The position numbers were made by a program, and so were the translations under genes. A stretch of 64,000 bases of DNA. Source: an uncultured Pseudomonadota bacterium (GTDB taxonomy: Bacteria > Oederibacteriota > Muellerivitia > Muellerivitales > Muellerivitaceae). Where the stretch lies: contig CAWJKT010000009.1 in the NCBI GenBank assembly GCA_963843375.1, positions 192,001 to 256,000 on the forward strand. The letters run 5' to 3'. Shown here piece after piece: positions 47,925-64,000 of the stretch. The notes under the pieces are model-generated. The model did not search any database. It had not been told where the DNA came from and was given only the letters and a program-made list of their open reading frames with translations. Within the stretch, counting starts at the first letter, position 1, and each line of letters begins with the position of its first letter.

Positions 47925-49037
47925 TTGCGCATCGCCCTGGTTCACGATTGGTTATCCGGCATGCGGGGCGGGGAAAAAGTCCTCTTGTCCCTGATGGAGT
48001 TGTTCCCGGGCGCTGATATTTTTACCCTGGTTTACCAGCCTGAAAAGTTCGGGGACCTTTTTGAGGGCCGGAAGGTCACCACCTCTTTTTTGCAGCGCCT
48101 GCCCTTTGGAAAAACCCGTTATCCCTATTACCTGCCCCTTTATTGGGAACTCATGAAAGGGTTCGACCTTTCCGAGTACGATTTGATTGTTTCCTCCAGT
48201 TCGGCCTGCGCCAAGTGGGTCCGCAACCCGAAGAAAGTCCTGCATGTCTGTTACTGCCATACCCCCATGCGTTACATTTGGGACCTTTTCGAGGATTATT
48301 TCGGGCCTCACGCCTCCGCCCCCGTGCGCTGGTCGGCCAAAGCATTCCGATCCTATCTTCAAAAATGCGACTTGAAGTCCAATGACGGTGTCACTCACTT
48401 TCTAGCCAATTCCACCGAGGTTCAGGGGCGGATCAAACGCATTTATGGAAGGGAATCCCAAGTTCTGCATCCGCCGGTAGAAGTGGACCGGTTCAAGTTG
48501 AAAAAGGGGAAGGGCGATTATTTTCTGGTAATCTCCGCGCTGGTACCCTACAAACGGGTCGATTTGGCGGTGAAGGTTTGTACTGAACACAACTGGCCTT
48601 TGGTGGTAGTAGGGAAGGGAAGCGAGGAAAAGTATCTGAAGGCGATGGCGGGACCATCGGTTTCGTTCAAAGGCTGGGCTTCCGACGAGCAGATGCCCTC
48701 ATATTATGAGAACGCCAAGGCGCTGCTTTTTCCAGGCAAAGAGGATTTCGGGATTGTCCCCGTTGAATCAATGGCTTCCGGGTGCCCGGTGATTGCTTTC
48801 GGGGAGGGCGGGGTATTGGATTCGGTGACCGACGGGGAGACCGGAGTTTTTATTGAGCAACAAACCCAGTCGTCCCTGGAAGAGGCTATCGAGCGGTTTG
48901 AGAAGATGAGTTTTGACCCCGAGTTGTTAAGGGCGAAGGCCAATCAATTCTCCAAAGCTCGCTTTTTGTTCCGGGCCCAAGTCTATTTCCGCCGTCTTTA
49001 CGGCATCAATGTCCAAGAAGAGAACCTTAAGCTCTGA
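47925..49037 (+). CDS. GT4 glycosyltransferase
   Basis: MRIALVHDWL..RGGEKV, CHTPMRY and EDFGIVPVESMASG. Confidence 0.92.
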   Translation: MRIALVHDWLSGMRGGEKVLLSLMELFPGADIFTLVYQPEKFGDLFEGRKVTTSFLQRLPFGKTRYPYYLPLYWELMKGFDLSEYDLIVSSSSACAKWVRNPKKVLHVCYCHTPMRYIWDLFEDYFGPHASAPVRWSAKAFRSYLQKCDLKSNDGVTHFLANSTEVQGRIKRIYGRESQVLHPPVEVDRFKLKKGKGDYFLVISALVPYKRVDLAVKVCTEHNWPLVVVGKGSEEKYLKAMAGPSVSFKGWASDEQMPSYYENAKALLFPGKEDFGIVPVESMASGCPVIAFGEGGVLDSVTDGETGVFIEQQTQSSLEEAIERFEKMSFDPELLRAKANQFSKARFLFRAQVYFRRLYGINVQEENLKL

Positions 49038-49113
49038 TGCTCCCATTCCCATTTGCCCCACCAGCGTCCAATGGTTAAACTATATTCGTTTTTCAATCCC
49101 CGGATCGGAACCT

Positions 49114-50502
49114 ATGAAAATCAGAATTCCTTCCATTTTTTCAGTTCTTAGTTTTGGGTTGGATGGTTTGTTGGTTGCCGTTTCTTTCGTATTTGCCAAT
49201 TGGATAAGGTTTTATTCGGGCTGGGTTCCGGAAGGGCCCGTTACTCATTACACCCATTACCGGTCTTTTGTTTTCTTTTTTGTTTCCGTGCATTGGATTG
49301 TTTTCAAGTACTTGGGGCTTTACCGGAAAAGGAGGGGAATTTCCGGGGTGGACGAATTGTCCAAGGTCATCCAAGGCGAATTGCTCGCAGCAATTCTTAT
49401 CTCCGCTTCGACTTTCCTGATTAAGTTTTTCGCTTTTTCACGCCTCGTTATCGGAATTTCGGCCGGATTGGTGATTGTTACCGTTTGGCTTGGCCGGACG
49501 ATTTTACGGAGAATCCAGATTATCCTTCGAAGAAAAGGAATAGGAGTCACCCGCATTTTGGTTGTCGGAACGGGGGAAACAGCCCGAGTATTGCTCCAGA
49601 GGCTTAAAAATAACCCCGGCTTGGGTTACCGGGTGGCAGGCATCGTTTCCGAAGGCAAGGGCTCAGGGGATGTGGAAGGTTTTAAGATTGTCGGAACCCT
49701 TCCCAAATTCACCATGCTTCTCCAAAAATATGCGCCCCATGAGGTTATTTTCGCACTGCCTGCGTCATCTCATGGGAAATTGCTTCCTATGCTGGTGACT
49801 CTTCAAGACACCCTGGTAAAATATAAGATAGTTTCGGACCTTTTTGGCCTCATCACCAATCCTCTTGAGAGCGATGTTTTGCTGGACCTGCCGGTTTTTG
49901 AGATGAAAGAAGCCCCCTTAAGCGCTTGGCACAATCAGACCATCAAAAGAGTCTTCGATTTCACTCTGGCCTTATTGGGAATCATTCTATTGAGTCCCGT
50001 TTGGATTTTGGTGGCAATCGGGATTAAGTTTTCTTCACCTGGTCCGGTTCTTTTCCACCAAAAGCGGGTGGGCCGGGACGGAAGAGTATTCCATATGCGG
50101 AAATTTCGTTCGATGACCGTAGGTTCGGAAACGGTTGCATTTACGAAAAAAGACGATCCCCGAGTAACGCCTTTTGGGGCATTCCTCCGCAAAACAAGCT
50201 TGGACGAATTGCCCCAGTTATTAAACGTGATAACGGGCCGCATGAGCCTAGTGGGGCCCAGGCCTGAGGTGCCAGGGTTGGTAGAGAAATTCGAGAAGGA
50301 AATCCCACGTTATTTCGAACGGCACCAGGTTAAGTCGGGCATCACCGGCTGGGCCCAGGTGAACGGATTCCGGGGAAATACGTCCCTTCATGAGAGAGTT
50401 AAATACGACATTTATTACATCGAAAACTGGAGTTTGCTTCTGGATATCAAGATCATTCTCAGGACTGTTTTGGACATTTTGGAACATGAGAATGCTTATT
50501 AA
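49114..50502 (+). CDS. Undecaprenyl-phosphate sugar-1-phosphate transferase (WcaJ/WbaP family)
   Basis: KRVFD, KFRSM, DDPRVT, SLDELPQL, SLVGPRPE, GITGWAQ and D.YYIENWS. Confidence 0.93.
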   Translation: MKIRIPSIFSVLSFGLDGLLVAVSFVFANWIRFYSGWVPEGPVTHYTHYRSFVFFFVSVHWIVFKYLGLYRKRRGISGVDELSKVIQGELLAAILISASTFLIKFFAFSRLVIGISAGLVIVTVWLGRTILRRIQIILRRKGIGVTRILVVGTGETARVLLQRLKNNPGLGYRVAGIVSEGKGSGDVEGFKIVGTLPKFTMLLQKYAPHEVIFALPASSHGKLLPMLVTLQDTLVKYKIVSDLFGLITNPLESDVLLDLPVFEMKEAPLSAWHNQTIKRVFDFTLALLGIILLSPVWILVAIGIKFSSPGPVLFHQKRVGRDGRVFHMRKFRSMTVGSETVAFTKKDDPRVTPFGAFLRKTSLDELPQLLNVITGRMSLVGPRPEVPGLVEKFEKEIPRYFERHQVKSGITGWAQVNGFRGNTSLHERVKYDIYYIENWSLLLDIKIILRTVLDILEHENAY

Positions 50503-50535
50503 AAATGGTGATATTAAATTTGGTTCTTCAGTTCG

Positions 50536-50563
50536 AATCCAACAAGAGGACCCTTAGTGGACA
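50536..50563 (+). repeat. 28-bp site A (degenerate left arm)
   Basis: AATCCAACAAG-AGGACC-CTTAGTGGACA; same spacing as the other six sites. Confidence 0.6.
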
Positions 50564-50584
50564 GCAATTTTAAAGGGATTTGCC

Positions 50585-51142
50585 ATGAAAAAACGTATCG
50601 TGTTCAGCTTGATGTTTATTTTCTTCTCAAGCCGGATTTGTCTTTCCGAATCTTCCTTGGATTCCGTAACATACCAAAAGGGTAAAAAAGCCGAGGACTC
50701 AAAGGATTTTATCCAAGCTTTAAAGTGGTATCAAAAAGCCGCATCAAATGGAAACGCAAGCGCGGAAAACGCCTTGGGTCATCTTTACTTACGAGGTGAG
50801 GGAGTTCCACAGGATTTACAAAAATCAATGGAATGGTATCGGAAAGCAGCCAAGCAGGGAGACCCTGAGGGGGAAACTAATGTTGGACACGGTTATGCCA
50901 TGGGATATGGGGTGACCCGGGATTACCATAAGGCACTGGAGTGGTACTTAAAAGCTGCCGCCCTTCAGAACGGCCGGGCCGAATTTTTTATCGGGGTAAT
51001 CTATACCAATGGTCTTAGAGTACCAAAGGATTACAAAAAAGCCATGGATTGGTTTCAAAAATCCGTCGCACATGGAAATAAAGAAGCCCCCTCTTGGTTG
51101 CCGATCCTTAAAAAACGTATAGCAAGTGGAGAAGTTAATTAA
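50585..51142 (+). CDS. Secreted Sel1-repeat protein
   Basis: Signal peptide and repeats of LG.LY..G.GV.QD..KA..WY.KAA.QG. Confidence 0.92.
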   Translation: MKKRIVFSLMFIFFSSRICLSESSLDSVTYQKGKKAEDSKDFIQALKWYQKAASNGNASAENALGHLYLRGEGVPQDLQKSMEWYRKAAKQGDPEGETNVGHGYAMGYGVTRDYHKALEWYLKAAALQNGRAEFFIGVIYTNGLRVPKDYKKAMDWFQKSVAHGNKEAPSWLPILKKRIASGEVN

Positions 51143-51187
51143 TTTCAAAATTATAAAGGCCCCCTCTGGAAATGAGTATCAAAAGGT

Positions 51188-51215
51188 TGTCCACGGCGGG
51201 GACCCAGCATGGACA
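51188..51215 (+). repeat. 28-bp site B
   Basis: TGTCCACGGCG-GGGACC-CAGCATGGACA. Confidence 0.85.
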
Positions 51216-51277
51216 GGGAAATGTGTGGACATCATCCGTACGTTCATGTATGCTTCTTTTGAGGGTAAGGGGGGGTT

Positions 51278-51553
51278 ATGGCTACAGTCACACAATCAAG
51301 GGAACAACGAATCGAAATTCGTATCCGACCGAAAGACAAGGCTATGCTGGAAAAGGCCGCCTCGATCTTTGGGCTGAGCCTCAGTGCCTTCATGCTATTC
51401 AATTCTTTGAAAGCGGCCCAAGAAGGGCTGACGGCTCAGAGCCGTATCACCCTTTCGGAAAACGAGTGGAATTCCTTCATGAAAGTCGTGGAGCACCCGC
51501 CCCGCCCTAATAAGGCCCTTCTGGCTCTCGCTAAGAAGCATAGCCGCGCTTGA
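51278..51553 (+). CDS. DUF1778/TacA-type RHH antitoxin
   Basis: RIEIRI...KAMLEKAA...LSLSAF and ITLS...F....PPRPNKAL; overlaps the GNAT start. Confidence 0.88.
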   Translation: MATVTQSREQRIEIRIRPKDKAMLEKAASIFGLSLSAFMLFNSLKAAQEGLTAQSRITLSENEWNSFMKVVEHPPRPNKALLALAKKHSRA

Positions 51554-52080
51554 GCCATTCTGAAAAACCTTTGGATATCGACGTTCTGCCAATCTCCCGC
51601 CATTTGGACTTGGGGTCTTTCGATAGCGGCGCACAGGCACTGAATGACTATCTCCAAAAATATGCCCGGCAAAATCACGATAGGAATATTAGCAAGACCT
51701 TTGTGGTCACGGAAAAAGAGGGAAATCGGAAGGTTTTGGGCTTTTACACGTTAGTTGCCTCCGAAATTGACGCCAAAACAATTCCTACAACCCATTCTAA
51801 ACACCTTCCCCGTTACCCAGTCCCTGCCGTAAGAATTGGAAGGCTTGCGGTAGACAAGCATCACCAGGGCCTAGGGATCGGTGAAGAACTTTTATGGGAT
51901 GCCCTTGGTAAAGCCAATCATTTATCCAACGAGGTCGGCATTTATGCCGTCGTGGTTGACGCTAAAGATGAAAAAGCTGCTCGCTTTTACCATAAATACG
52001 GGTTCGTTCCATTATCCAATAATCCTAAAACACTTTTTTTGCCTGTCGAAACGATAAAAGCTCTATTTACCAAAAAATAA
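51550..52080 (+). CDS. GNAT acetyltransferase toxin (TacT/AtaT-like)
   Basis: FDSG...LNDYL, PVPAVRIGRLAVD, QGLGIG and VVVDAKDEKAARFY. Confidence 0.9.
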   Translation: MSHSEKPLDIDVLPISRHLDLGSFDSGAQALNDYLQKYARQNHDRNISKTFVVTEKEGNRKVLGFYTLVASEIDAKTIPTTHSKHLPRYPVPAVRIGRLAVDKHHQGLGIGEELLWDALGKANHLSNEVGIYAVVVDAKDEKAARFYHKYGFVPLSNNPKTLFLPVETIKALFTKK

Positions 52081-52104
52081 AAGGATTATTGTCCTCGCAG
52101 AGGT

Positions 52105-52132
52105 TGTCCGCCACGGGGAGGTGTAATGGACA
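52105..52132 (+). repeat. 28-bp site C
   Basis: TGTCCGCCACG-GGGAGG-TGTAATGGACA. Confidence 0.85.
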
Positions 52133-52169
52133 AGCAAATTGGAAAATTTGTTCCTTTTTAACCTAGAAA

Positions 52170-52190
52170 GTATATACTATTCGTATATAC
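52170..52190. promoter_or_regulatory. Putative TA autoregulatory operator
   Basis: Two palindromic GTATATAC boxes separated by 5 bp, just upstream of the antitoxin RBS. Confidence 0.55.
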
Positions 52191-52207
52191 CATCAAAGGA
52201 GCACTAA

Positions 52208-52447
52208 GTGACTAAAGTCCTGTCCCTAAAAATTAAAGGTGAAATCTTCGAGGATGTGGAAGTCCTAACCAAACGGCTTCATATGCCCCGCAACACCTAC
52301 ATCAACGAGGCGCTGGATTTTTACAACGCTTTCAACAGGCGCAAAGGGCTTCGCCAAAAACTAAAAAAAGAATCCCTGCTCACGCGAAAGAATTCCATGG
52401 ACATTCTGAGCGAGATGGAAAAACTCGAAGAATCAACCGCTGAATGA
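52208..52447 (+). CDS. Putative RHH-type antitoxin
   Basis: LSLKI...RNTYINEAL; AAGGAG RBS; stop overlaps the MazF-like toxin start. Confidence 0.8.
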   Translation: MTKVLSLKIKGEIFEDVEVLTKRLHMPRNTYINEALDFYNAFNRRKGLRQKLKKESLLTRKNSMDILSEMEKLEESTAE

Positions 52448-52788
52448 AAATCAGGAAATTTAATATTTACCTGGCCGATCTAAGCCCGCGTTTCGGCACC
52501 GAGCCTGGAAAAACGAGGCCTGTCGTCGTTCTTCAAACAAACCTTTTGAACGATAGCCTGCATCCCAGCACGATCATCTGTCCCATCAGTACCAACGTCG
52601 TTCACGGGGCAGAGATACTTCGTGTCCGCCTTCCGAAGAAGGAAACGGGCCTTCGAAAAGATTCCGATATTTTGGTCGATCAAATACGGTCCATTGATAA
52701 CCGCCGATTCGTCAAGCATTTGGGGGAATTGGGCCCGATCGATAAGGCGAAGTTGATTGAAAACCTTAAAATTCTTTTATTTGAATAA
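52444..52788 (+). CDS. PemK/MazF family endoribonuclease toxin
   Basis: LADLSPRFGTEPGKTRPVVVLQ, ICPIS and DQIRSID motifs. Confidence 0.92.
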   Translation: MKIRKFNIYLADLSPRFGTEPGKTRPVVVLQTNLLNDSLHPSTIICPISTNVVHGAEILRVRLPKKETGLRKDSDILVDQIRSIDNRRFVKHLGELGPIDKAKLIENLKILLFE

Positions 52789-52800
52789 ACCAATCAGGGT

Positions 52801-52828
52801 TGTCCACGGCGGGGACCCGGATTGGACG
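52801..52828 (+). repeat. 28-bp site D
   Basis: TGTCCACGGCG-GGGACC-CGGATTGGACG. Confidence 0.85.
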
Positions 52829-52846
52829 ATGGGGAGGACAAATATC

Positions 52847-52945
52847 ATGGGCAAGACCACGGTCATCAGTTTTGTGACCCTCGATGGGGTCATTCCGGCG
52901 CCAGCTAGACCGGATGAAGATATACGCGGGGGGATCACGCGAGGT
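52847..52945 (+). pseudogene. 5' remnant of a dihydrofolate reductase/RibD C-terminal family gene
   Basis: GGAGG RBS then MGKTTVISFVTLDGVIPAPARPDEDIRGG, resembling the family N-terminus; similarity is lost after about 33 codons. Confidence 0.6.
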
Positions 52946-53006
52946 GATCGCGGGCTATTGACTGACACCAATATTCAAACTCGAGCTAAGACTTTGTCTG
53001 AAATAA

Positions 53007-54008
53007 TTGAACATTTGTCACTTCATCGGGAGGCTGGCCACAATATTCCCGATGATACCGTTGATGACTTCACCGGGGAAGCGGGAGTGGGCCGTGAAAC
53101 TTCCCGCTAAAGGCCAGGCGAAGCCCGGCCTAAAAATCCTCGTGACGGGGATCACCATCGATCCACCGGGAGCGACCTATGGGCCGCGTCTACAAAACCA
53201 CAATGAGTTCATCTGGCTGATGGAAGGAGAGGCGACCGCCACCTTCGATAAGCGGGTTATCCGGGCCGAGACTGGGACCGTTCTCCTTCGGCGCGCGGGC
53301 GTGAGGGATTACTATGAATGGTCCTCGAAGCGCCGCACCGTCCATGCCTATATCCAATTCGACCTGGACCCCGAATGGCGGGAAGCATTGAAGCCGTCGA
53401 TCCCTTCCTTCCGTGTTCTTCCCCCCAACGACATTATCCGCCCGCTTTTCGGTTACCTTTTGAACCTGGAACGACTGAAGGAGCCCCTTCGGAGCAAGTT
53501 GATGATCCCGTCACTGGAATTAATGCTTCAAAGTTATGTCACGGGTGAATGGGCGGTGAAGGCCCAGCCCGCCACCCATTTGCCGGTGGCGGTCGCGAGG
53601 GCAGTGGAGGCCATAAGGGAGAACACGATCCGAACCCCGCCGGGGCCGCTCCGCTTGAAAGACCTGGCCCTGGCTTCGCGCACGACGCCCGAAACCCTCT
53701 GCCGCCTCTTCAAGAAATCACTTAAACTGGGGCCGCTGGAATACGCCAAGCTTTCCCGCCTTGACCGCGCCACCAACCAACTGCGCCGAACATCCTTAAG
53801 CCTCAAAGAGATCGCCACAGCTACGGGCTTCTACGACGCCTACCACCTTTCCCGCAGTTTCAAACAGGTTTATGGTATATCCCCAAAAATATTCCGGGAA
53901 TCAGGCAATATCGAATGGATCTCCCAGAAAAACCCCATCATCCGGCTGCTCTACATGGGCAAGGCGGCGGATTCCAGGAAAGGCCCGCCGATTCCGCGAG
54001 GAAATTAG
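53007..54008 (+). CDS. AraC family transcriptional regulator (start uncertain)
   Basis: Cupin-like N-domain; LKDLA...PETLCRLFK and LKEIATATGFYDAYHLSRSFKQVYGISP double HTH. Confidence 0.9.
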   Translation: MNICHFIGRLATIFPMIPLMTSPGKREWAVKLPAKGQAKPGLKILVTGITIDPPGATYGPRLQNHNEFIWLMEGEATATFDKRVIRAETGTVLLRRAGVRDYYEWSSKRRTVHAYIQFDLDPEWREALKPSIPSFRVLPPNDIIRPLFGYLLNLERLKEPLRSKLMIPSLELMLQSYVTGEWAVKAQPATHLPVAVARAVEAIRENTIRTPPGPLRLKDLALASRTTPETLCRLFKKSLKLGPLEYAKLSRLDRATNQLRRTSLSLKEIATATGFYDAYHLSRSFKQVYGISPKIFRESGNIEWISQKNPIIRLLYMGKAADSRKGPPIPRGN

Positions 54009-54361
54009 AAAAAATTAATTTTCCCGGGATGGCCCTTCCCTGATCAAGCGGTCAATTCCATCCATCCTTTTGTCAATCCTGTCTATCCCGCTTTGAGGCT
54101 CCCCGGGGGTTTAATAGTTACAACGGGTATTGAAGTACCGTTGTTGGAAAACTCATTCGAGGGGAGACACCGTGCGTTTATTCCTCCTGAAATCGTTCCT
54201 GCCTTTTCCCCTGTTTTTTTCCCCTTCTTCCGCCTGGGCCTTTTCCGCCGGTTTGAACATTTTCCGATCCGACGAATTCAACCAGTCCGGCAACCGCACG
54301 CCGACTCCGCCGGCAGGTTTTATGAAAAGGAGTCGAATTGAAAAAAAGGGATGGAAGATTC

Positions 54362-57300
54362 ATGAAGCATAGGGCCGGTTGGATCCTTTTTTTAAAAAGG
54401 GCAGTAAAATCGTTTTGGGTTTTGCTCTTCATCGCCAACGCCCCAAAGGTTTTTGCTGATTACACCTGGGAAGGAGTGCCTTCCGGTTATGGGCTGGCCT
54501 GGAGCGACGAGTTCAATGGTTCGGTCGGAAGCGCCCCCAATTCCGCCAATTGGAGCTATGTCACAGGTACTGACTGTTGTGGAAATAACGAGTTGGAAAA
54601 TTATACGACCAGTACGGCCAATTCCCAGATCGTGGCCGATCCCAACGCGATAGGCGGCCAAGCCCTGGCCATCATCGCCTTGGATCCGGGCGGCAATAAC
54701 GATGCGGCCGGCGATTACACTTCCGCCCGGCTGGTCTCTTCCGTGGGTTCAACCCCGAACAATAATTGGCAATATGGTTACATGGAAGCCAGGGTCAAGA
54801 TGCCCTATGGGGACGGCATCTGGCCGGCCTTTTGGATGATGGGCAATAATATCAATTCGGGCACGGCCTGGCCCACCTGCGGCGAGATCGATATCATGGA
54901 AAACATCGGGAACGCCGCAACCTATAACGGCAACCCACCTGACCAGGCCAACAACCACGGGTCCCTTCACGAAGGGCCTTCTTCCTCCGACGTGGTTTCG
55001 GCCACCGATATTTTTACCCTGGCCGGGCCCCAGCTCTTTCACAACGCCTACCATACCTTCGCCGTCAATTGGCAGGCCAACGAGATCCAGTTCTACGTGG
55101 ATGGGAACCTTTATGAAACGGATACTTCCTCGTCCCTAACCGGCGCCACTTGGGCGTTCAACAACAGTTTTTTTTACCTGTTGAATTTGGCGGTTGGCGG
55201 CACTTGTCCGGGCAATCCGGATGTCTCGACTTCTTTCCCGCAAACCATGTTCGTCAATTATGTGCGGACCTACCAGACAGGCAAACCCACCCCCACACCG
55301 GTGGTCCAGTCCACCTGGCGGGTGCATTGCGGTGGGGACAATTACACCGACGGCGACGGCAACCTCTGGGTGGCGGACACGAATTTCACGGGGGGCTGGC
55401 CTTCCTACGGCAGTACGGCCGCCTCGGGTACGGTGCTTCCCACCTCCAGGCGACTCGTTGCTTTACCAGTACCAAAGGTATGGGAACACGACGGGCGGGG
55501 AAACGGTCACCTATACCTTCAACGTGCACGCCGGCTCCACTTACCAGGTGGACCTGAAATTCGACGAGACCAATTCGACCGGGCCCAATCAGCGGCAGTT
55601 CAACTACTCGATCAACGGCGCGACAGAGGCCACGAACTTCGACATTTATGCCACGGCCGGAGGCGCCAACAAGGCTTTGGATGAGGTTTACAATAATATC
55701 TCGCCGAACTCCAGCGGCCAAATCGTCATCCAGTTCACCCAAGGGGCCTATGGCAACCCGACAGTGGGAGCCATTCAAGTCATTCAGACTTCATCGACCT
55801 CTACGCCTACCCTAACATCCACGGCAACGTTCACTACGACCTCCACTCCTTCCAGGACAAGCACGCCCACCCTCACTTTTACCGGGACCTATACACACAC
55901 CTTCACCCCCACCAATACTCCCACGGACAGCCCCACTTTTACCGCCACAGTTACAAGAATGAATACGGCCACCAATACTGTGACCAATAGCCCCACCGCA
56001 ACGGCCACCTCAACCCCCACGGCCATCCCGACCAAAACGCCGACGAGCACGGCCACTTCTAGCGTCACCAGCACGGCCTCCGCCACACCCACGAACACTT
56101 TTGGCAATACGGCCACGAATACCCCTGCTTCAACCCCCTCGAGTACCGACACCGGTACTTCTACAGCTACCGACTCAAACACCGCCACCAAGACGACCAC
56201 TTCCACACCGACGAGCACGGCCACTTCCAGCCCCACAATTACCTCATCCTCAACGCCCACCAAAACGACGACGGCGACCCTCACGGATACCCTAGCCAAC
56301 ACGGTCACTCAAACCGCCACGGCAACCGATACTCCCACTTCCACCATCTCAAACACCCCGATCAAAACCACGACTTTGACTCCCACGCTCACTCCCACAG
56401 CCTCCACCACTGCCACGGCTACCAACAGCTCGACGGTTACCCCGATCTTCACGGCCACAAATACCCAGCCCCCCACAGCCTCTAATACTTCGTCCCTGAC
56501 GGCATCGAGCACCCCCACGGAAACCTCCACCTTCTCAGTCACCCTCAGCCCCACTACAACACCCACCAATACCGGGACCATTCCTCCCGCCAATTCGGCC
56601 ACCCCCACCCCCACCCTTACGCCCACCAGTAGCCCTACCACTATCCCCACCAACAGCCCGACCAATTCACCCACGTTCACGCCGACTTTCACGCCCACGG
56701 CCTCCAGCAGCCCCACCGGGACTCCCACAGGCACCTCCACCAACAGTCCCACTTCCACCACCACCCATTCCCCGTCCGTCACGCCCACCAATAGCTCATC
56801 GCCGACGCCTATGAATACACTCACTCCAACGCCAATTCTTACTGCCACTCTGACTCCGACGTTAAGCCCAACGAATACGGCTTTCACGGCGACTTTCTCG
56901 CCTACTGGAACGCAAACCAACAATGCAACGGGAACCCCCACGGCGACTCAGCTCACGAACACGCCCACCCCAACCCCCACGGTCACCTTCACCCCAACCT
57001 CCACCAATAGGAGTACCATGACATTTACGGTGTCAAATACTCCCACGAGCGCGACCACTTACAGCCCCACATACCCTTTAACGAATACCCTCACTCCAAC
57101 ACAAACTCTTACCGTCACCATGACTCCGACATTAAGCCTAACGATTGCGCCGACGTTCACTCCGACCCCCGCCATGACAGGAGTCGTGATTGGCCTCCCC
57201 TTTCCAAACCCCGTTTTCGGCGAAGGGCCCGTGTTTGTTCGGGTGCAGGCCGCTTCCGGCTCAAAGGTGGAATTAAGCATCTTTACGTCGGCCTTTCGCA

Positions 57301-57467
57301 AGGTCCTGGACATTCCCAGTCCCGTTCAGGGTGATAAAATGACACTTAATTGGGATCTGGATGATGCTTGGGGAAATCCCGTGGCAAATGGCCTTTACTA
57401 CCTGAGGGTTCAGGTTTCCGATCCGGTCATTACCTCCAAAATCCTGAAGGTCCTTGTCATTCGGTAA
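54362..57467 (+). CDS. Secreted GH16 (laminarinase-like) + malectin + Thr/Pro linker + C-terminal Ig-like sorting domain (frameshift near 55450)
   Basis: WSDEF, IWPAFWMMG and GEIDIMEN catalytic motif; malectin-like GG.NYTD..G..W.AD and LYQYQRYG; several hundred aa of TPT repeats; PNP...WD...G..VANGLYYLRV C-terminus. Confidence 0.82.
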
Positions 57468-57526
57468 GACAAGTTTCACTGAAACCAAAAATATTTTTCT
57501 AATAAAATAAAATTAAATCGAATTCT

Positions 57527-57554
57527 TGTCCACGGCGGGGAGGTATAGTAAACA
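57527..57554 (+). repeat. 28-bp site E
   Basis: TGTCCACGGCG-GGGAGG-TATAGTAAACA. Confidence 0.8.
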
Positions 57555-57719
57555 ATAATTTTTTCAATACCTTGGCTGCTTCTTCATCCTCATCCTGAAC
57601 AAAAAGCGCTATTTATTATCAATTTTATTGTTGCCTCCCCTCCCCCCCACTACTAAACTTCCTCATGCTAAATTCTTTTCAACACCTTTAACCGCCCAAT
57701 TCGAGTCAAAGATATTTCA

Positions 57720-58982
57720 ATGAAGATTCAAATCGTAGGGCTTTTTTCGCTTCTCGTTGGAGTCGGCTTTTTAACCCTCGGTTGTCCATCCAAAAGTAAC
57801 AGCCCTTCTAGCCCAGCTGCGCCGACTAATATTTCCACTCCAATCATTACCAATACGCCGACCAACACTAGCACCAACACCGCCACGGGAACGGCAACGG
57901 GGACACCAACCAAAACCGCCACACCTACCAGCAGCGGCACGCCTACCAATTCGCCAACGTCCACTCCCTCGGGCACCCCGACCAACAGCGCTACGAATAC
58001 CGCGACCGCGACGATCACTAACACGCCGACGATTACCCCCACATCCACCCAAACGGGTACACCAACGAACAGCGCTACTGTTACGCCGACCTTTACGATA
58101 ACGAGCACAGCGACCGTTACCGCCACCAGCACACCCACCAACTCGCTTAGCGCTTTCGCGACTATTGGCAGCGATGGTAAAACTTTATTTAACTATCCCA
58201 TGGGTATTCAATACCTAGGAGGTTATTTATGGATGGCGGATACAAATGGCCTTGGGTCCCCGAATTTTCAAGAATGGGTCACGAATGGAACCAGTCCCGT
58301 GACGAACATGACAATTTATAATGGATCGGCATCGTTTCAGGCTCCCTGGGGTGTGGGCATTGATTCCGCCACTGGAAATGTCTATGTGACGGATGAAGTT
58401 GCGGGTCAAATTGATGTTTTCAACTCCGCCGGGACTTACCTTACCAATTTTGGAAGCACCTATTTAGACAAGGGCTTCTTGGGCGTGGCCTTAAACTCGG
58501 CGGGGACGACGGTTTATGCTCTCACGTCAGATTCTATTATTTATATTGTTTCCGTTACCCCCGGTTCGATCCCCACTTATACCCTTCAAACAGGCTTTGG
58601 CCAATCGGGGTCTGTAGCATCGTATAAGCTTCTTTCCCCTCAAAATTTGAGAGTAGACGGAAATGGATATGTTTGGGTGGCGGATCAAGGAAACCATCGA
58701 GTGGCGGAATACACCGGAGCGGGGATTTATAACCTCACATCCTTTATTACGGTAACCAGCCTTGCCAATCCTTTTATGCCCTCGGATGTATTGGTGGACA
58801 GCTCTGGTAACGTCTACGCTACGGATAATGAAAATAATTATGTCGTGGAATTTAATTCATCCGGCACGCAAATAGGCCAATTTGGGGAGGGGATTTTATA
58901 TGGACCCAATGGCATTACCACGGATGGGGCTGGTAATTTTTACGTAACAGATTCAAGTCCTCAAATAGTGGGGTTTCATTAA
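57720..58982 (+). CDS. Lipoprotein with Thr/Pro linker and NHL-repeat beta-propeller
   Basis: Lipobox LTLG-C; repeats such as PWGVGID..GNVYVTD and [14 protein letters not shown]. Confidence 0.85.
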
Positions 58983-59007
58983 GAATTAACTCAGAAGAAA
59001 GTTGGTC

Positions 59008-60336
59008 ATGAAGTTATACCTCATAGGGCTTGTTTCGCTTCTCCTTGGGATAGGCTTTTTAACCCTCGGCTGTCCTGGCAAAAATAATCCCTCCAGCCCC
59101 TCTGCACCTGCTCCTGTGCAAGCTACGCCCACTTTTACACAAGCTTGCTGGGTGGGTACTTCCCCTACTTGTACTCCGTACGTTACTCCGATTGGTATAA
59201 CAACCCCAACCGGTTATTACGTGACCGGCACTGTTAACTATACCGGCTCTCGAGGATCGGTTAATTCAACGAATTATTTGTACGTGGCATTAGCGAATTC
59301 CAGTTTTAATTTCGTCTCGGGCGAAGATATTGCCATGAATGGCGGGACCTATCAAATTTACGCTTCTTCAGCAGGAACTTATTATCTAGGGGCATTTTAT
59401 ATTAACGTTAGTGAACCGCATATTTATTATCCCTCTACTTGTATAGAACCTGGGGCGGGAATCACCATAAATGGGGGGGTTGCAGGAATCGATTTGTCAT
59501 TTGGGGATAGTTGCACCTTTAGTACGCCATCTCCTACTCTTGGGTCGTCGACTTTGACCGCCACTCCTACCAACCAAACACCTGTCGCCACGCTGACCTT
59601 TACTCCGACGATCACGCCTACCTTCAACTACACTTGGACGGCATCCAACACGCCGACGAATACCTACCCGCCGGGAACGAATACTCCCACCCGTGTGCCC
59701 ACCAACACACCCACTCCAACACCTACCGGCACTTTAATCATTATTTATCCGACCGCTACACCGACGGAAACGGACACCCCCACCGAAACCGAAACTTCGA
59801 CCGTCACTGATACGCCGACGGATACCTGGCCGCCAGGAACGGACACGCCCACGGCCCAAGCCACGGATACTCCCACCGAAACGCCCACGGACACGGAATT
59901 TGAAGTCGACATACCGACCGGCACCCCTACAGATACTGAAACCGATACGGCTACCCACACGCCCACTGAAACTGTTACCCCTACTCCCACGGTCACCGAC
60001 ACATCCACGATTACCGATACCCCCACCAATACGCCGACTCCTGGCGCCACCTATAGTGTTTATTTCACGGCATCGGGAACTGCCGGTGTCGAATATGAAA
60101 TTGTTTACAGTTCTGTTATTTCCGGAGCGGTTACCGCCGTTGTTTATACAGGCACTTTAAACGGTGGGAATTGGACCTCCCCGACAGTCGATTTTCCTGG
60201 AGATACCGAAGTTGGTATTTCCGCCGGGGGTGTTACCAGCACAAATTCAATTACGGTAAACCTTTATGTCGACGATGTTTTGGAAGGGACAGGTACTAGC
60301 TCCAGCGGCGCACCCGTTTCCTATCTATTGCCTTAA
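59008..60336 (+). CDS. Thr/Pro-rich lipoprotein of unknown function
   Basis: Lipobox LTLG-C, two beta-rich domains and a TPTDT/TPTET linker. Confidence 0.75.
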
Positions 60337-60485
60337 AATTAAACCAAAACCCCAACTAGCTAAGCGGGGGAAGTTCGGCAAACTTCTGCCAAGGTAGGTG
60401 GGGAATACCCCCCCCCTTATGTCTGCTTTATTATGTAGGCTCAAGATTTTAAAATCTCTATCAACTAAAATATCTTGAATTTTAT

Positions 60486-60513
60486 TGTTCCATACGGGGA
60501 CCCGGATTGGACA
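60486..60513 (+). repeat. 28-bp site F (intron insertion site)
   Basis: TGTTCCATACG-GGGACC-CGGATTGGACA. Confidence 0.85.
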
Positions 60514-61296
60514 GCGTGCCAGGATCAAGGATGCAGCAGCCAGCAGGTGCGGTTCGATATGAACCAAGTCCTGACGGGGTAACCGCCCGAGGGCCCCGAA
60601 GTCAACCTCCGTGGCAAAGTCGAGAGGCCTTGTCCGAAACGAGGTCATAAACCTTCGAAAGGAAGGGAACAATACTACAGTCCGTAACATGAAGTGAATC
60701 CTGCCGCGTCGTGACGAGTCCGCCGAAAGGCTATAGGGGAGGCCGAGCCGCGTGTCCAACGGCGAAGGCAACAATCTCATCCTGAAACGGGATTGGGTGG
60801 GGTAAATCCTCCGGCGTATTGGGAGCGGAATGTTGGAAAGGCTGGTGCATCAACCTGGGAGATCCTACCCGTTAAAAGAGCGGCTCCTATAAGGGCGACC
60901 GAAAGGGAGACGTGACGGGAGGAAGTCGGAGGGGGAAATAGTACCGCTTAGAGGGGGAGGACAACAAAACCTCACCTGAGGGAAGGTCCCCTGCTTCAAC
61001 CATGTGCCTTCAAGAAGGGTGGCGCTGGAGAATGCCGGAAACGGCTAATAACTCTGAAGGTCAAAAGCGCGTAATCTTCAACAAGCACTATGCCGAACGG
61101 CCAAGGGAAGTAGAACCTGTAAAGCCGTCGGAGAAAAGGTTGTCGGAAAGCCGTATGATCGAAAAGGTCACGTACGGTTTGATGAGGGGGCGTTGGAAAC
61201 GAAGTGATGAGGGAACCTAGTTGGGGCACGGAACCGGAAACGGGGAAACAGATCAAGGGGCCCTCTGCACACAACCGCGCCAGCGCTCTACTCTAC
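60514..61296 (+). mobile_element. ORF-less group II intron (IIB-like), about 783 nt
   Basis: 5' GCGTG (GUGYG-like); EBS1-type hairpin GCCG-CGTGTCCAA-CGGC-GAAGGC at 60747-60769; domain V AAGCCGTATG...CACGTACGGTTT at 61148-61180 with AGC triad; 3' end ...CTCTACTCTAC; no RT ORF. Confidence 0.88.
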
Positions 61297-61415
61297 AACA
61301 AATAATGGGCCGAATCCTTTGGTGATCCTCATGGGCAATAGGGGGTTGATTCGATTACTCCCGCAGTTAAAAATAACCGCGAAAACGAAAACGTTTTTTT
61401 CCTAAGGAGAAAACC

Positions 61416-62186
61416 ATGAAACAACCCGTCGTTATTGTTACCGGAGCCAGTCAGGGCATTGGTCGTGCCACAGCCATAAGACTAGCCGCTGATTTTAAGG
61501 CCGTGGTTCTCGGGGCCCGGAACGAGGAGGGCCTCAACGAGACGGCCAAGTCGGTCCAATCCGCCGGAGCGGAGCCCCTGGTCCTGCCGCTGGATTTACG
61601 CCAGGGCGAAGCAGCCAAGACCCTCGTGGACAAAACTCTGGAAAATTTCGGCCGGATCGACGCTCTGGTAAACATAGCGGGGGCCGTGCCCCAAATCGAC
61701 CTTTTGGAAATGACGGACGCCCAATGGGACGATGGAATGGCGCTCAAACTTCACGGCGCCCGGCGAGTGACAATTCATGCGTGGGAAGCACTGAAAAAAT
61801 CCAAGGGTTCGGTGGTATTCACCTCGGGCAACTCGGCCCTGGCGCCCAAGTCGGCCTTTGCCGCCGTAGCCGTCACCAATGCGGCCATTGTGGCCTTGGC
61901 CAAAGCCTTCGCGGAACGGGGGATCAAGGATGGCGTTCAGGTAAATAGTGTCCTGCCCGGGCCTGTGTTCACCAATCGCCGAAAAACCTACATGGAAAAA
62001 TACGCCCCCCTGCACAACATGACAGTGGAAGAGGCGCTTGAAAAATTTCCCGCCGAGGCGGGCATTACCCGATACGGTCAGCCAGAGGACATCGCTAACT
62101 TGATGGCGTTTTTGGTTTCCGCGGAAGGGAAGTGGATGACCGGCTCGGCAGTTCGAATGGACGGCGGCGAGATCAAGGCGGTCTAG
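61416..62186 (+). CDS. Short-chain dehydrogenase/reductase (SDR)
   Basis: TGASQGIG, GRIDALVNIAG, VNSVLPG and TGSAVRMDGG. Confidence 0.92.
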   Translation: MKQPVVIVTGASQGIGRATAIRLAADFKAVVLGARNEEGLNETAKSVQSAGAEPLVLPLDLRQGEAAKTLVDKTLENFGRIDALVNIAGAVPQIDLLEMTDAQWDDGMALKLHGARRVTIHAWEALKKSKGSVVFTSGNSALAPKSAFAAVAVTNAAIVALAKAFAERGIKDGVQVNSVLPGPVFTNRRKTYMEKYAPLHNMTVEEALEKFPAEAGITRYGQPEDIANLMAFLVSAEGKWMTGSAVRMDGGEIKAV

Positions 62187-62232
62187 GGTAATCGCTTCAT
62201 TGAAGTATCGCTGTTAATAGCGGTTTTCGCAT

Positions 62233-62260
62233 TGTCCACAATGGGGACCCGTCGTGGACA
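62233..62260 (+). repeat. 28-bp site G
   Basis: TGTCCACAATG-GGGACC-CGTCGTGGACA. Confidence 0.85.
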
Positions 62261-62316
62261 AAGAAAAAGTATCGATTTGGATTTTTAAATGGGGGCAATT
62301 ATTGAAGTTGCAAATA

Positions 62317-64000
62317 ATGAAAAGTAATAAAAGAACGATTATCAAAATTATTTCGGGTTTAGTTTTAGCAGTTGGAATTTCTTGGGCTGCTGCTACCCCC
62401 ACTCCAAGTGGCCAAAACCAGGCCGAAATCCTTTGGGATAGTTGGGGCGTTCCCCACATCTATGCCACCAATGACACCAGCCTCTTCAAGGCTTTCGGGT
62501 GGGCTCAAATGCATAATCATTCAAAACTATTGCTCCATGACTATGCCTTGGCCCGGGGCAAGGGGGCCGAATTTTTCGGCCAAGATGATTTGGTTTCCGA
62601 TCGGTCCGTTCGATTGATGGGTCTATATCCAATCGCCCGTCAGTGGTACGCGCAACAAACCCCAAGGTTCCGCGCCGACTTGGATGCCTTTGCCGAAGGT
62701 ATCAACCTCTATGGGCGGAACCCCAAAAACGGTTTGGATGCTGCGTCCCTAAAAGTTTTGCCGGTTGATGGAGTGGATGTCATGGCTCATGCCATTCGGA
62801 TTATTTGGCATTTTCAGAGGGATCTGTCTCACATTAAATCAGGTTTGTCGAACGGAGAGTGGCTGGGCTCCAACGGTTGGGCCATCGCGCCCTCTCATTC
62901 TGCGGATGGTCACGCTATGTTATTAGCCAACCCCCATCTTCCCTGGAATGGGGAAAGAACCCTATTCGAGGCCGAGCTCAATTCCCCGGATTATCAGTGT
63001 TATGGCTCTGCCATAGTCGGAATCCCGATTCTTTCCATTGCGTTCAACGAGTCAATAGGATGGACCCATACGGTTAACACGATCAATCCCTGCTCCTTAT
63101 ACCAGCTTACTCCCGATGGAAAGGGCTATCGTTTTGACGGAAGCCACTTCAATTTTTCAGCCCATGTGGAAAAAATAAAGGTTCTCCAGGCGGATGGTTC
63201 CCTTAAGTCGGAGGATTTACTAGTCCGTAACGCAATCCAGGGCCCAGTGATCGAGGACAAAGGCCAACTCAAGGCCATTCGGGTAGCTGGCCTCCAATGC
63301 GGTTCTTACTCTGGAGCCATGGAACAATGGTGGAAAATGGGACAAGCCCGAAATCTAAGCGAGTTCCAATCCGCTTTGCGTTTAATGCAATTACCCATGT
63401 TCAATACAATTTACGCTGATTCCGATGGAAACATTTTTCTTTTCGACGGGGGATTGGTTCCTAAAAAGGGAAATGGAGATTTCTCCTTTTGGACTCGGCC
63501 TGTTTCGGGGGACACGAAAGAAACGGTTTGGGCGGATTTCATGGATTACGATTCACTGCCAATGGCTTTGAATCCAAAGGCGGGTTGGGTCCAAAACTCC
63601 AACAGCGACCCCTGGTACATGACCCAGCCAATCCTCGACGGCCATCTATATCCGCCCGATATGTCCGACATCCATGGATCTCCAAGTTTTCGTGAACAAA
63701 GGGGTATCCGGATGCTGACGGAAAGCGAAAAAATTTCTTACGATCAACTAATCGCCGATAAGTTCTCCACCCGAAGCGAAATGGCGGACCATCTGGTTGA
63801 CGATTTGGTGACCGCCGCTAAATCCCGTGGCGGGGAAACACTTCTTCGAGCCGCCGATGTTTTACGGAAATGGGACCGGTGTTTTGAAGATGATAGCCGG
63901 GGGGCGGTATTGTTTGAAGCCTGGAAAAATAGGGATTTTGTAAGCGGATGGCCCCTTTCGGTTCCTTTCGATTCAGCCCACTTTTTAGAGACACCACGAG
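62317..64000 (+). CDS. Penicillin/cephalosporin/AHL acylase family Ntn-hydrolase (runs off the window; absent from the ORF track)
   Basis: Signal peptide, WDSWGVPHIYA, in-frame G-SNGWAIAP (nucleophile Ser at 62869), LLANPHLPW and GWTHTVN. Confidence 0.9.
   Translation, partial: MKSNKRTIIKIISGLVLAVGISWAAATPTPSGQNQAEILWDSWGVPHIYATNDTSLFKAFGWAQMHNHSKLLLHDYALARGKGAEFFGQDDLVSDRSVRLMGLYPIARQWYAQQTPRFRADLDAFAEGINLYGRNPKNGLDAASLKVLPVDGVDVMAHAIRIIWHFQRDLSHIKSGLSNGEWLGSNGWAIAPSHSADGHAMLLANPHLPWNGERTLFEAELNSPDYQCYGSAIVGIPILSIAFNESIGWTHTVNTINPCSLYQLTPDGKGYRFDGSHFNFSAHVEKIKVLQADGSLKSEDLLVRNAIQGPVIEDKGQLKAIRVAGLQCGSYSGAMEQWWKMGQARNLSEFQSALRLMQLPMFNTIYADSDGNIFLFDGGLVPKKGNGDFSFWTRPVSGDTKETVWADFMDYDSLPMALNPKAGWVQNSNSDPWYMTQPILDGHLYPPDMSDIHGSPSFREQRGIRMLTESEKISYDQLIADKFSTRSEMADHLVDDLVTAAKSRGGETLLRAADVLRKWDRCFEDDSRGAVLFEAWKNRDFVSGWPLSVPFDSAHFLETPR

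Follow-up and report, generated by a model that had tools for sequence, protein, structure and literature searches.

A candidate serine-recombinase cassette system built on co-oriented 28-bp palindromes in candidate phylum FCPU426

Why does the chromosome of an uncultured soil bacterium carry, behind an exopolysaccharide cluster, a run of unrelated genes on one strand, set apart by nearly the same 28-bp palindrome, and which enzyme could move them? The question arises from a stretch of 64,000 nucleotides (nt), hereafter the window, at C9:192001-256000 of an assembly labelled G000 (4.05 Mb, 32 contigs, 80% complete); window positions count from C9:192001. A preliminary description, made from the letters alone, had read this part of the window as an integron-like array of gene cassettes. 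We propose that the palindromes are cassette recombination sites and that the likeliest enzyme is a serine recombinase of 274-281 aa encoded at an array end, a reading to which we give a probability of roughly 0.6. The evidence for sites, arrays and enzyme is comparative only and comes from metagenome-assembled genomes; our main reference was G054, a member of the same genus (99% complete, 5 contigs) whose backbone is ~80% identical to that of G000. As far as such comparisons reach, they establish the sites, the arrays, their insertion, the reassortment of cassettes and the adjacency of the recombinase, and from these we infer that the short serine recombinase cuts at a central GA dinucleotide and moves the cassettes.

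The preliminary description listed seven co-oriented palindromes, none of them in the first 50 kb, each 12-150 bp past a stop codon. Scanning the whole window with its pattern at up to two mismatches recovers six of the seven on the plus strand (51188, 52105, 52801, 57527, 60486 and 62233), where chance would give 0.01 matches and where eight matches were reached in none of 100 shuffles. Two near-perfect palindromes also score on the minus strand, and positions 1-50000 hold no match at this threshold. The seventh, at 50536, reads AATCCAACAAGAGGACCCTTAGTGGACA and has eight mismatches to the family consensus; since only its right half is canonical, it is better understood as a hybrid junction than as a full site. 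The distances from stop codon to site, for sites 1 to 7, are 33, 45, 24, 12, 59, 149 and 46 nt, which bears out the placement first given.

Across the whole assembly the consensus is TGTCCACGACGGG-GA-CCCGTCGTGGACA, a palindrome of 13-2-13 layout, and G000 holds 71 copies at seven mismatches or fewer, compared with 1 for the reversed consensus used as control. These copies are clustered, 63 of the 71 having a neighbour within 5 kb, and they are oriented alike in 50 of 52 adjacent pairs. For 56 of the 71, a same-strand open reading frame (ORF) stops no more than 150 nt upstream, at a median distance of 27 nt. They form about seven arrays in G000, and the near-complete G054 has about ten on four contigs. 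The preliminary description was right that an array is present, but it is one of several, and the window's own array is three times longer than first seen. The arrays of G000 lie as follows:

C9 93-134 kb, array A, which adjoins this contig's recombinase gene
C9 242.5-271.9 kb, the window's array
C6 7-18 kb
C6 45-64 kb
C6 254-271 kb
C18 48-60 kb
C10 142-145 kb

The architecture of the site was derived from 140 copies pooled from G000 and its congener. Conservation covers the TGTCCA at the outside, the GGG further in and the GA at the centre (present in 131 of 140), whereas positions 7-10 and 19-22 are variable, the right arm more so than the left. Both arms are one consensus in inverted repeat, the central GA is the sole asymmetry, and five genomic copies are perfect palindromes except for this GA. 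Many sites pair only across the outer 6 bp. The arms do not covary, since at the four variable pairs shuffled copies give Watson-Crick fractions of 0.56-0.65 and the real ones 0.54-0.64; this points to a protein that reads two half-sites in duplex DNA and not to a selected hairpin.

How did such an array come to lie where it does? The window's array is flanked by the sugar transferase and epimerase genes of a polysaccharide locus, which are spaced 705 bp apart in G054 and 29.6 kb apart in G000; the inserted array holds ~22 sites and ends at G000:C9:271853, 17.9 kb past the window end. The parts that fall within the window are these:

49009..50502, plus strand, left chromosomal flank: sugar transferase (Bac_transf, Pfam), last gene of the exopolysaccharide cluster
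50536..50563, plus strand, site 1, hybrid by comparison with relatives: pseudo-site left half AATCCAACAAGAGGA and canonical right half CCCTTAGTGGACA
50585..51142, plus strand, cassette 1: Sel1-repeat protein (Pfam)
51188..51215, plus strand, site 2: 0 mismatches to the initial pattern
51278..52080, plus strand, cassette 2: TacA-like antitoxin and GNAT toxin pair (Pfam)
52105..52132, plus strand, site 3: variant with a GGGGAGG centre (pattern scan)
52208..52788, plus strand, cassette 3: small upstream ORF without a Pfam match and MazF/PemK toxin (Pfam)
52801..52828, plus strand, site 4 (pattern scan)
52829..57467, plus strand, cassette 4: short ORF without known family, AraC regulator, GH16 glycosidase and malectin-domain ORFs in overlapping frames (Pfam)
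57527..57554, plus strand, site 5: right outer arm degenerate, GTAAACA (2 mismatches)
57720..60336, plus strand, cassette 5: NHL-repeat protein (Pfam) and a 444-aa protein matching no known family
60486..60513, plus strand, site 6 (2 mismatches)
60514..61297, plus strand, ORF-less group II intron, GTGCC start at 60516 (Rfam RF02003 and RF00029)
61416..62186, plus strand, cassette 6: short-chain dehydrogenase (Pfam)
62233..62260, plus strand, site 7 (0 mismatches)
62254..64000, plus strand, cassette 7: penicillin-amidase family gene (Pfam) that runs past the window end, the next site being at G000:C9:256536

Most of the gene labels first proposed are upheld by Pfam, namely Sel1, TacA(DUF1778)-GNAT, MazF, AraC, GH16 (with malectin in addition), the short-chain dehydrogenase and the acylase, which is a penicillin amidase; the Pfam searches gave no support for the 'DHFR remnant' (ORF 52829-53107) or the 'RHH' protein (ORF 52208-52444). 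The proposed group II intron is matched by both Rfam models. The GH16 and malectin ORFs (window 54338-57467) overlap out of frame. Comparison with contigs from three public runs shows single-base indels at window 54306, 55223, 55226 and 55446, so this gene may be intact in nature and the frameshifts may be assembly or strain differences. At least some cassettes bring their own regulatory regions; the MazF pair, for example, is preceded by a conserved palindrome.

Comparison with relatives places the insertion within a site. On the left side, homology with G054 (83% identity) breaks off at base 7 of site 1 (window 50542). The sugar transferase has an ortholog in 27 of 30 family genomes, and 17 of the 18 stretches 3' of it in 16 relatives are free of sites. 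Many relatives without the array have GTTCGAGTCCAAAGCGGGGAGCC at this locus, which resembles a left half-site plus centre, and the pseudo-site at the insertion locus is AGTCCAAAGCGGGGAGCC. Site 1 is the counterpart of the GTTCGAGTCCAAAGCGGGGAGCC motif joined to a canonical right half, while at the far array end (C9:271826) a canonical left half is joined to non-canonical sequence; a solo MazEF cassette in G070 has the same two hybrid half-sites. The hybrid half-sites at the array ends and around the solo cassette therefore argue for breakage and joining between the arms of a site.

At window 50503-50550 and the orthologous spots, a conserved motif, GGTTCGAGTCCAAAGCGGGGAGCC(A), lies 3' of the sugar transferase gene; it resembles a tRNA's T-loop and 3' end but is not a tRNA gene, and this motif at the insertion point may be a relic attachment site. 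An origin of the 28-bp sites from tRNA genes was considered and rejected, as the 46 tRNA genes account for the positions of tyrosine integrases and not for those of the sites; contig C4 of G000 carries no 28-bp site.

The units between sites recur in relatives from site to site with unrelated neighbours, as the preliminary description had supposed of independently assorting cassettes. A DNA search with window 50536-64000 finds the MazF cassette in at least 12 family genomes, matching site-to-site, and the TacA-GNAT cassette, likewise site-to-site, in G044:C60 at 83% identity. In an alignment of 15 MazF cassettes, homology begins after the upstream site and stops before the downstream site, and the flanks are unrelated. 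At least 8 cassettes are common to G000 and G054 but stand in different arrays and order, and within G054 one 1217-bp cassette occurs in two arrays at 100% identity, from site start to site end. A 12.2-kb segment of array A (G000:C9:114033-126248) is 98.5-99.9% identical to G054:C1:382841-395056, compared with ~80% for the backbone, which indicates recent transfer between species; its right end falls at position 19 of a site and its left end has no recognisable site. Assembled public contigs (3 soil runs and 1 lake run, from 3 studies) leave the window sequence at the site edges 51215, 52797 and 52827, and one leaves it at the centre of site 2 (51202) and continues with a different right half; contigs from 4 runs change neighbours at the edges of site 4, 52797 and 52827. 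Four contig joints (51207>52798, 52824>60484, 52827>62232 and 55387>56972) were not counted as excision, since their short sides are 21-30 letters long and the first three lie on the repeated site. Breakpoints among relatives thus fall at or inside the sites, and neither genome-wide nor in relatives did we find sites scattered in both orientations or a gene order conserved without breakpoints at the sites. On these sequence comparisons, cassettes assort independently and are bounded by sites.

The site family has a narrow phylogenetic range. Surveyed at up to two mismatches, with the reversed control run alongside, the pattern turns up in 27 of 30 further members of the family, with 1 to ~120 matches each, and in the one genome of the sister family, whereas the 67 genomes that represent the other 21 families of candidate phylum FCPU426 have none; the reversed control had no match anywhere. 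Sites from 16 genera share an identical sequence. When one genome per prokaryotic species was scanned for the exact pattern, at least 168 stretches came up, and among the 80 matches listed most are titled candidate division FCPU426, the remaining titles being uncultured proteobacterium, Proteobacteria bacterium, uncultured bacterium and one Candidatus Firestonebacteria. Judged from these scans, the site family is lineage-specific within FCPU426.

Which enzyme, then, could act on these sites? The preliminary description expected a recombinase encoded outside the window, and a candidate is indeed found beyond it, at an array end on C9. This short serine recombinase has 274-281 aa and the Pfam domains Resolvase and Recombinase; the copy in G000 (281 aa, Ser20 being the putative catalytic residue) is encoded at C9:137160-138005. 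Of the parts of a large serine recombinase it retains the catalytic domain, helix E and the DNA-binding recombinase domain. In an alignment it is 45-58% identical to 9 full-length large serine recombinases, and over the catalytic and recombinase domains its identity to full-length homologs is 47-60%. It ends ~20 residues past the recombinase domain, where the 9 long homologs start their zinc ribbon (CGHCGC...YYHCTG), and so is without the CxxC zinc ribbon and the coiled coil, while the catalytic motif YVRVSS is conserved (YxRVSS). All 10 short-form ORFs are intact, with dN/dS of 0.05-0.16 in 27 of 45 pairs, the rest being saturated. The gene is convergent with its array, and its stop codon is followed by a site, at a distance of 9-37 nt, in 9 of the 10 loci that leave space for one; an eleventh locus ends 22 nt past the stop, within an apparent site. 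The distances from recombinase stop to site are:

G054, 35 nt
G048, 15 nt
G067, 15 nt
G052, 9 nt
four metagenome loci, 10-37 nt
G000, 36 nt, to the right half of an intron-split site

Among the best 80 metagenome loci encoding relatives of the enzyme, sites (six mismatches or fewer) accompany 5 of 7 short forms and 0 of 73 long forms. Two properties expected where a serine recombinase acts are present here, namely inverted half-sites around a polar central dinucleotide and, encoded beside the site, a serine recombinase with its catalytic serine. In the A118-type integrase described in PMC3783163, the recombinase domain spans half-site positions 1-12, with a helix reading 9-11, and the zinc ribbon reads positions 16-24; the zinc ribbon and coiled coil confer attP/attB selectivity and directionality, and exchange takes place only with parallel central dinucleotides, so that the dinucleotide sets polarity. 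An enzyme lacking the zinc ribbon would therefore be expected to use ~13 bp per half-site, as observed, and the conservation of the outer hexamer fits this as well.

The recombinase-proximal half of the terminal site is non-canonical in G054, G048, G067 and metagenome locus L100 (for example AAAAGGAACA), which by analogy recalls an attI-like half. Sites otherwise of this recombinase-proximal type, with the right half (A/C)AAAGGAACA or AGAAGGAACA, occur at G000:C9:267172, C18:52965, C6:48654 and G054:C1:399376, all in recombinase-less arrays, and may be relics of former array ends. Upstream of the recombinase, the DNA is conserved over ~60 nt and, in three genomes, includes a small ORF (L043:5439-5687, L044:5569-5826 and L047:687-966; DNA conserved in G048, G067 and G052). 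This ORF has no Pfam match and, to judge from its position, could encode an accessory or directionality factor.

Group II introns are a further feature of the sites. The window's intron (60514-61297) points the same way as the cassette genes and follows site 6 at a distance of 0-2 nt, its 3' end (61297) having been set from other copies in 3 runs, and copies of it in relatives likewise follow a site. A 104-nt fragment identical to its 5' end follows the site at G000:C18:59734, a remnant stands after a shortened palindrome at C6:12684-12777, three copies in G048 begin at one shared 60-nt offset past a site, and seven or more copies are present in G067 and G048. A second group II intron, encoding a reverse transcriptase/maturase (G000:C9:135166-137097, or L041:5166-7097; 458-aa ORF, in which Pfam finds no endonuclease domain), divides the recombinase-proximal site behind base 11 into TGTCCACGACG and AGGAGCCATCGTGGACA, and a canonical terminator hairpin lies 27 nt upstream of it. 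Group II introns of class IIC-attC sit at integron cassette sites (PMC3001079), and by analogy the window intron looks like a site-specific parasite of cassette sites. Like that class, it belongs to an intron lineage found specifically at cassette recombination sites, but it differs in being co-oriented with the cassette genes and placed 0-2 nt behind the palindrome, its assignment to group II being by Rfam matches.

Taken together, these observations suggest a model in which each site consists of two 13-bp inverted half-sites (TGTCCA, four loose bases, GGG) around an asymmetric GA, and each cassette would run from the right half of a site, through one to a few genes, to the left half of the site that follows. 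The cargo, consisting of toxin-antitoxin pairs, regulators and enzymes, would be excised and re-inserted through exchange within the site. A recombinase dimer would bind each site, two sites would synapse and all four strands would be cut at GA; subunit rotation would then swap the halves, direct sites yielding a one-site circle and the reverse reaction an insertion at any site or pseudo-site. The window's array would have been seeded by insertion into a pseudo-site between two polysaccharide genes and have grown afterwards, and one array end per genome would encode the enzyme, convergent with the cassettes. Because only the GA is asymmetric, productive exchange should need parallel sites and arrays should stay co-oriented; because the coiled coil is absent, no directionality of the attP/attB type is predicted; and with a single type of site throughout, the reaction would be expected to be reversible. 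The more far-reaching proposal is an equivalent of the integron that is built on a serine recombinase, shares no homologous component with integrons and would be an independent invention of cassette arrays: a truncated large serine integrase serving as a host-resident recombinase for the capture, storage and shuffling of genes at uniform, double-stranded 28-bp sites, with crossover at GA, seeding at pseudo-sites and recombinase-less arrays left behind. On the sequence evidence, we hold the chances of this proposal to be about even.

Several observations weigh against the reading of the sites as substrates of this enzyme. Recombination was never observed. A convergent gene lies on the right-arm side of 12 of the 71 sites, a site of inverted polarity and perfect consensus occurs within the window's array (C9:261806-261833, or L001:5806-5833), and at metagenome locus L098 the site is 111 nt from the recombinase and of opposite polarity. 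An intact short form (at least 70% identity) was found in only 5 of 28 site-bearing family genomes, G000, G054, G048, G052 and G067, all of them among the 12 richest in sites; G070 and G072 carry fragments, and no short recombinase was found at E<=1e-5 in the site-rich G066 (98% complete), G050 (99%), G047 and G044. In such genomes, arrays may persist as do clusters of attC sites lacking integron integrases (CALINs) without IntI, the gene may be unassembled, or another enzyme may act. The upstream neighbours of the recombinase (ArdC-like in three genomes, RadC, DUF2958 and PRiA4_ORF3) are typical of mobile elements, so it could be the integrase of a separate site-targeting element. Since the site itself is repeated, contig alignments bracket the crossover but do not fix it to the base. 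Cassette copies do not clearly keep half-site variants of their own: in 29 non-independent pairs, one locus counting twice, the upstream right arm was equal in 7 (background 0.14) and the downstream left arm in 15 (0.37), a weak trend in the direction that a central crossover would give.

The inverted site at C9:261806-261833 falls inside a 292-aa ORF, beside a minus-strand block of DoxX, ArsR and TetR genes.

The alternative that survives best is that these are true cassette sites worked by some other enzyme, either a housekeeping Xer-like tyrosine recombinase on an 11-6-11 layout or another protein, the serine recombinase being the integrase of an element that, like the group II introns, inserts beside or into the sites. 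The preliminary description had likened the 11-6-11 layout to Xer/dif-type sites, and a length of 28 bp does fit dif geometry; Xer-like genes are present in all 5 genomes checked (scores below the curated cut-off), the serine recombinase is missing from most site-bearing genomes, and its ArdC, RadC and DUF2958 neighbours are typical of transferable elements. According to PMC13141974, dif modules of Acinetobacter are small accessory modules, toxin-antitoxin and Sel1 genes among them, bounded by 28-bp pdif sites and shuffled between replicons, and neighbouring sites have to alternate in orientation. In a pdif site, an XerC arm and an XerD arm of different sequence stand around a 6-bp spacer. The sites of G000 offer no such distinction, both arms being the same, and 50 of 52 adjacent pairs are co-oriented. 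The Xer-like genes lie ~38-42 kb from the nearest site, and of the 14 tyrosine recombinases of G000, mostly beside tRNA genes as is usual for island integrases, none abuts a site array; it is the serine recombinase that does. At the loci compared, no putative element is bounded by a second site lying 5' of the serine recombinase gene, and the length of the enzyme suits a 28-bp site. We therefore regard the Xer reading as unsupported in its original form, and a different enzyme altogether as unlikely.

Three tandem tyrosine recombinase genes at G000:C8:95486-98251 are unrelated to the 28-bp sites. A cumulative GC-skew peak near 51 kb had also raised the idea of stacked Xer-dependent elements at dif or the terminus, which was dropped because there are multiple arrays in both genomes, ~10 on four contigs in G054 and ~7 in G000; GC skew is extreme, at -0.41, at window 56-58 kb, in the stretch of the GH16 and malectin ORFs.

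Less probable still is that the palindromes are gene-end elements resembling repetitive extragenic palindromic (REP) sequences or terminators, the cassette pattern having arisen via homologous recombination between repeats together with gene flow in islands. Perfect or near-perfect palindromes on the gene strand, at a median of 27 nt past stop codons, are what such elements would look like, and group II introns that seek terminators insert directly behind them. However, REP elements tend to be species-specific, whereas this sequence is identical over 16 genera; the RAYT/Y1 transposase (PF01797) has no match in the 80%-complete genome; and the sites are clustered (63 of 71), not dispersed. The covariation expected of hairpins is lacking, many sites pairing in the outer 6 bp only. 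The hybrid half-sites at array ends and the solo insertion imply breakage and joining inside the site, and a recombinase gene abuts a site at 9 of 10 loci. The idea of a CALIN, a classical integron array that has lost its integrase, here with attC sites of unusual shortness, is scarcely credible. The shared orientation of the cassettes, their many toxin-antitoxin pairs and a group II intron that seeks the sites do recall sedentary chromosomal integrons, but the best match to the integron-integrase model (TIGR02249) in the 80%-complete genome reaches 47.5 bits against a cut-off of 265, junctions lie mid-site and not at one end, and the sites, as was recognised from the outset, are not attC, being 28 bp long, devoid of RYYYAAC/GTTRRRY boxes and conserved in sequence, not structure.

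How does the system compare with known ways of storing cassettes? Integrons rely on a tyrosine integrase and on folded single-stranded attC sites, which are imperfect hairpins of 57-141 bp with RYYYAAC/GTTRRRY boxes, conserved in structure rather than in sequence. As in integrons, small cassettes of unrelated content, many of them toxin-antitoxin pairs, stand in co-oriented arrays, and each has a single site, 3' of its genes. A recombinase gene lies at the end of one array while further arrays have none, genomes share cassettes in differing order, and group II introns home to the sites. The differences are as clear: (i) the candidate here is a serine recombinase; (ii) the sites are short and sequence-conserved, without attC boxes, extrahelical bases or arm covariation; (iii) junctions fall inside the site; (iv) the recombinase gene is convergent at the 3' array end, whereas in integrons it is divergent at the 5' end; and (v) some cassettes have their own regulatory regions. 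With dif modules the system shares 28-bp sites and small accessory modules including toxin-antitoxin and Sel1 genes, but its arms are alike, its sites co-oriented and its arrays chromosomal, much longer and without a linked Xer gene. On sequence features, it therefore lacks what defines an integron (IntI, attC) and what defines a dif module (distinct arms, alternation).

Among serine enzymes, the nearest functional parallel would be the tandem accretion of elements of the staphylococcal cassette chromosome (SCC) type, an analogy based on the general features of SCC. SCC and the enterococcal cassette chromosome use Ccr large serine recombinases, pile up in direct tandem with short repeats, and include recombinase-less elements moved in trans. 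SCC elements measure tens of kb, occupy one chromosomal gene end, and depend on full-length enzymes with zinc ribbon and coiled coil and on distinct attB and attSCC; in contrast, the units here are 0.3-5 kb, arrays are many, the site is a uniform palindrome and the enzyme is truncated. With A118, phiC31 and Bxb1, the short form shares the catalytic motif, homologous domains and a site with a central asymmetric dinucleotide, but it misses the zinc ribbon and coiled coil and has one site type only; by sequence, it is related to the canonical large serine recombinases without being one itself. The suggestion that the system might be undescribed still stands, in that the literature searched on serine-recombinase cassette arrays and on FCPU426, with most subscription journals outside its scope, describes no such system.

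If the proposed system is real, it would be a third, unrelated solution to cassette storage beside integrons and the dif modules of plasmids, meaning that the storage of gene cassettes evolved more than once, and it would extend cassette storage to a barely studied soil phylum. A serine recombinase of ~280 residues that needs only a 28-bp palindrome and takes its polarity from two bases would be a very compact tool, and it would help to show what large serine integrases gain from their zinc ribbon and coiled coil. The arrays also amount to an inventory of mobile accessory genes, toxin-antitoxin pairs among them, that move between species.

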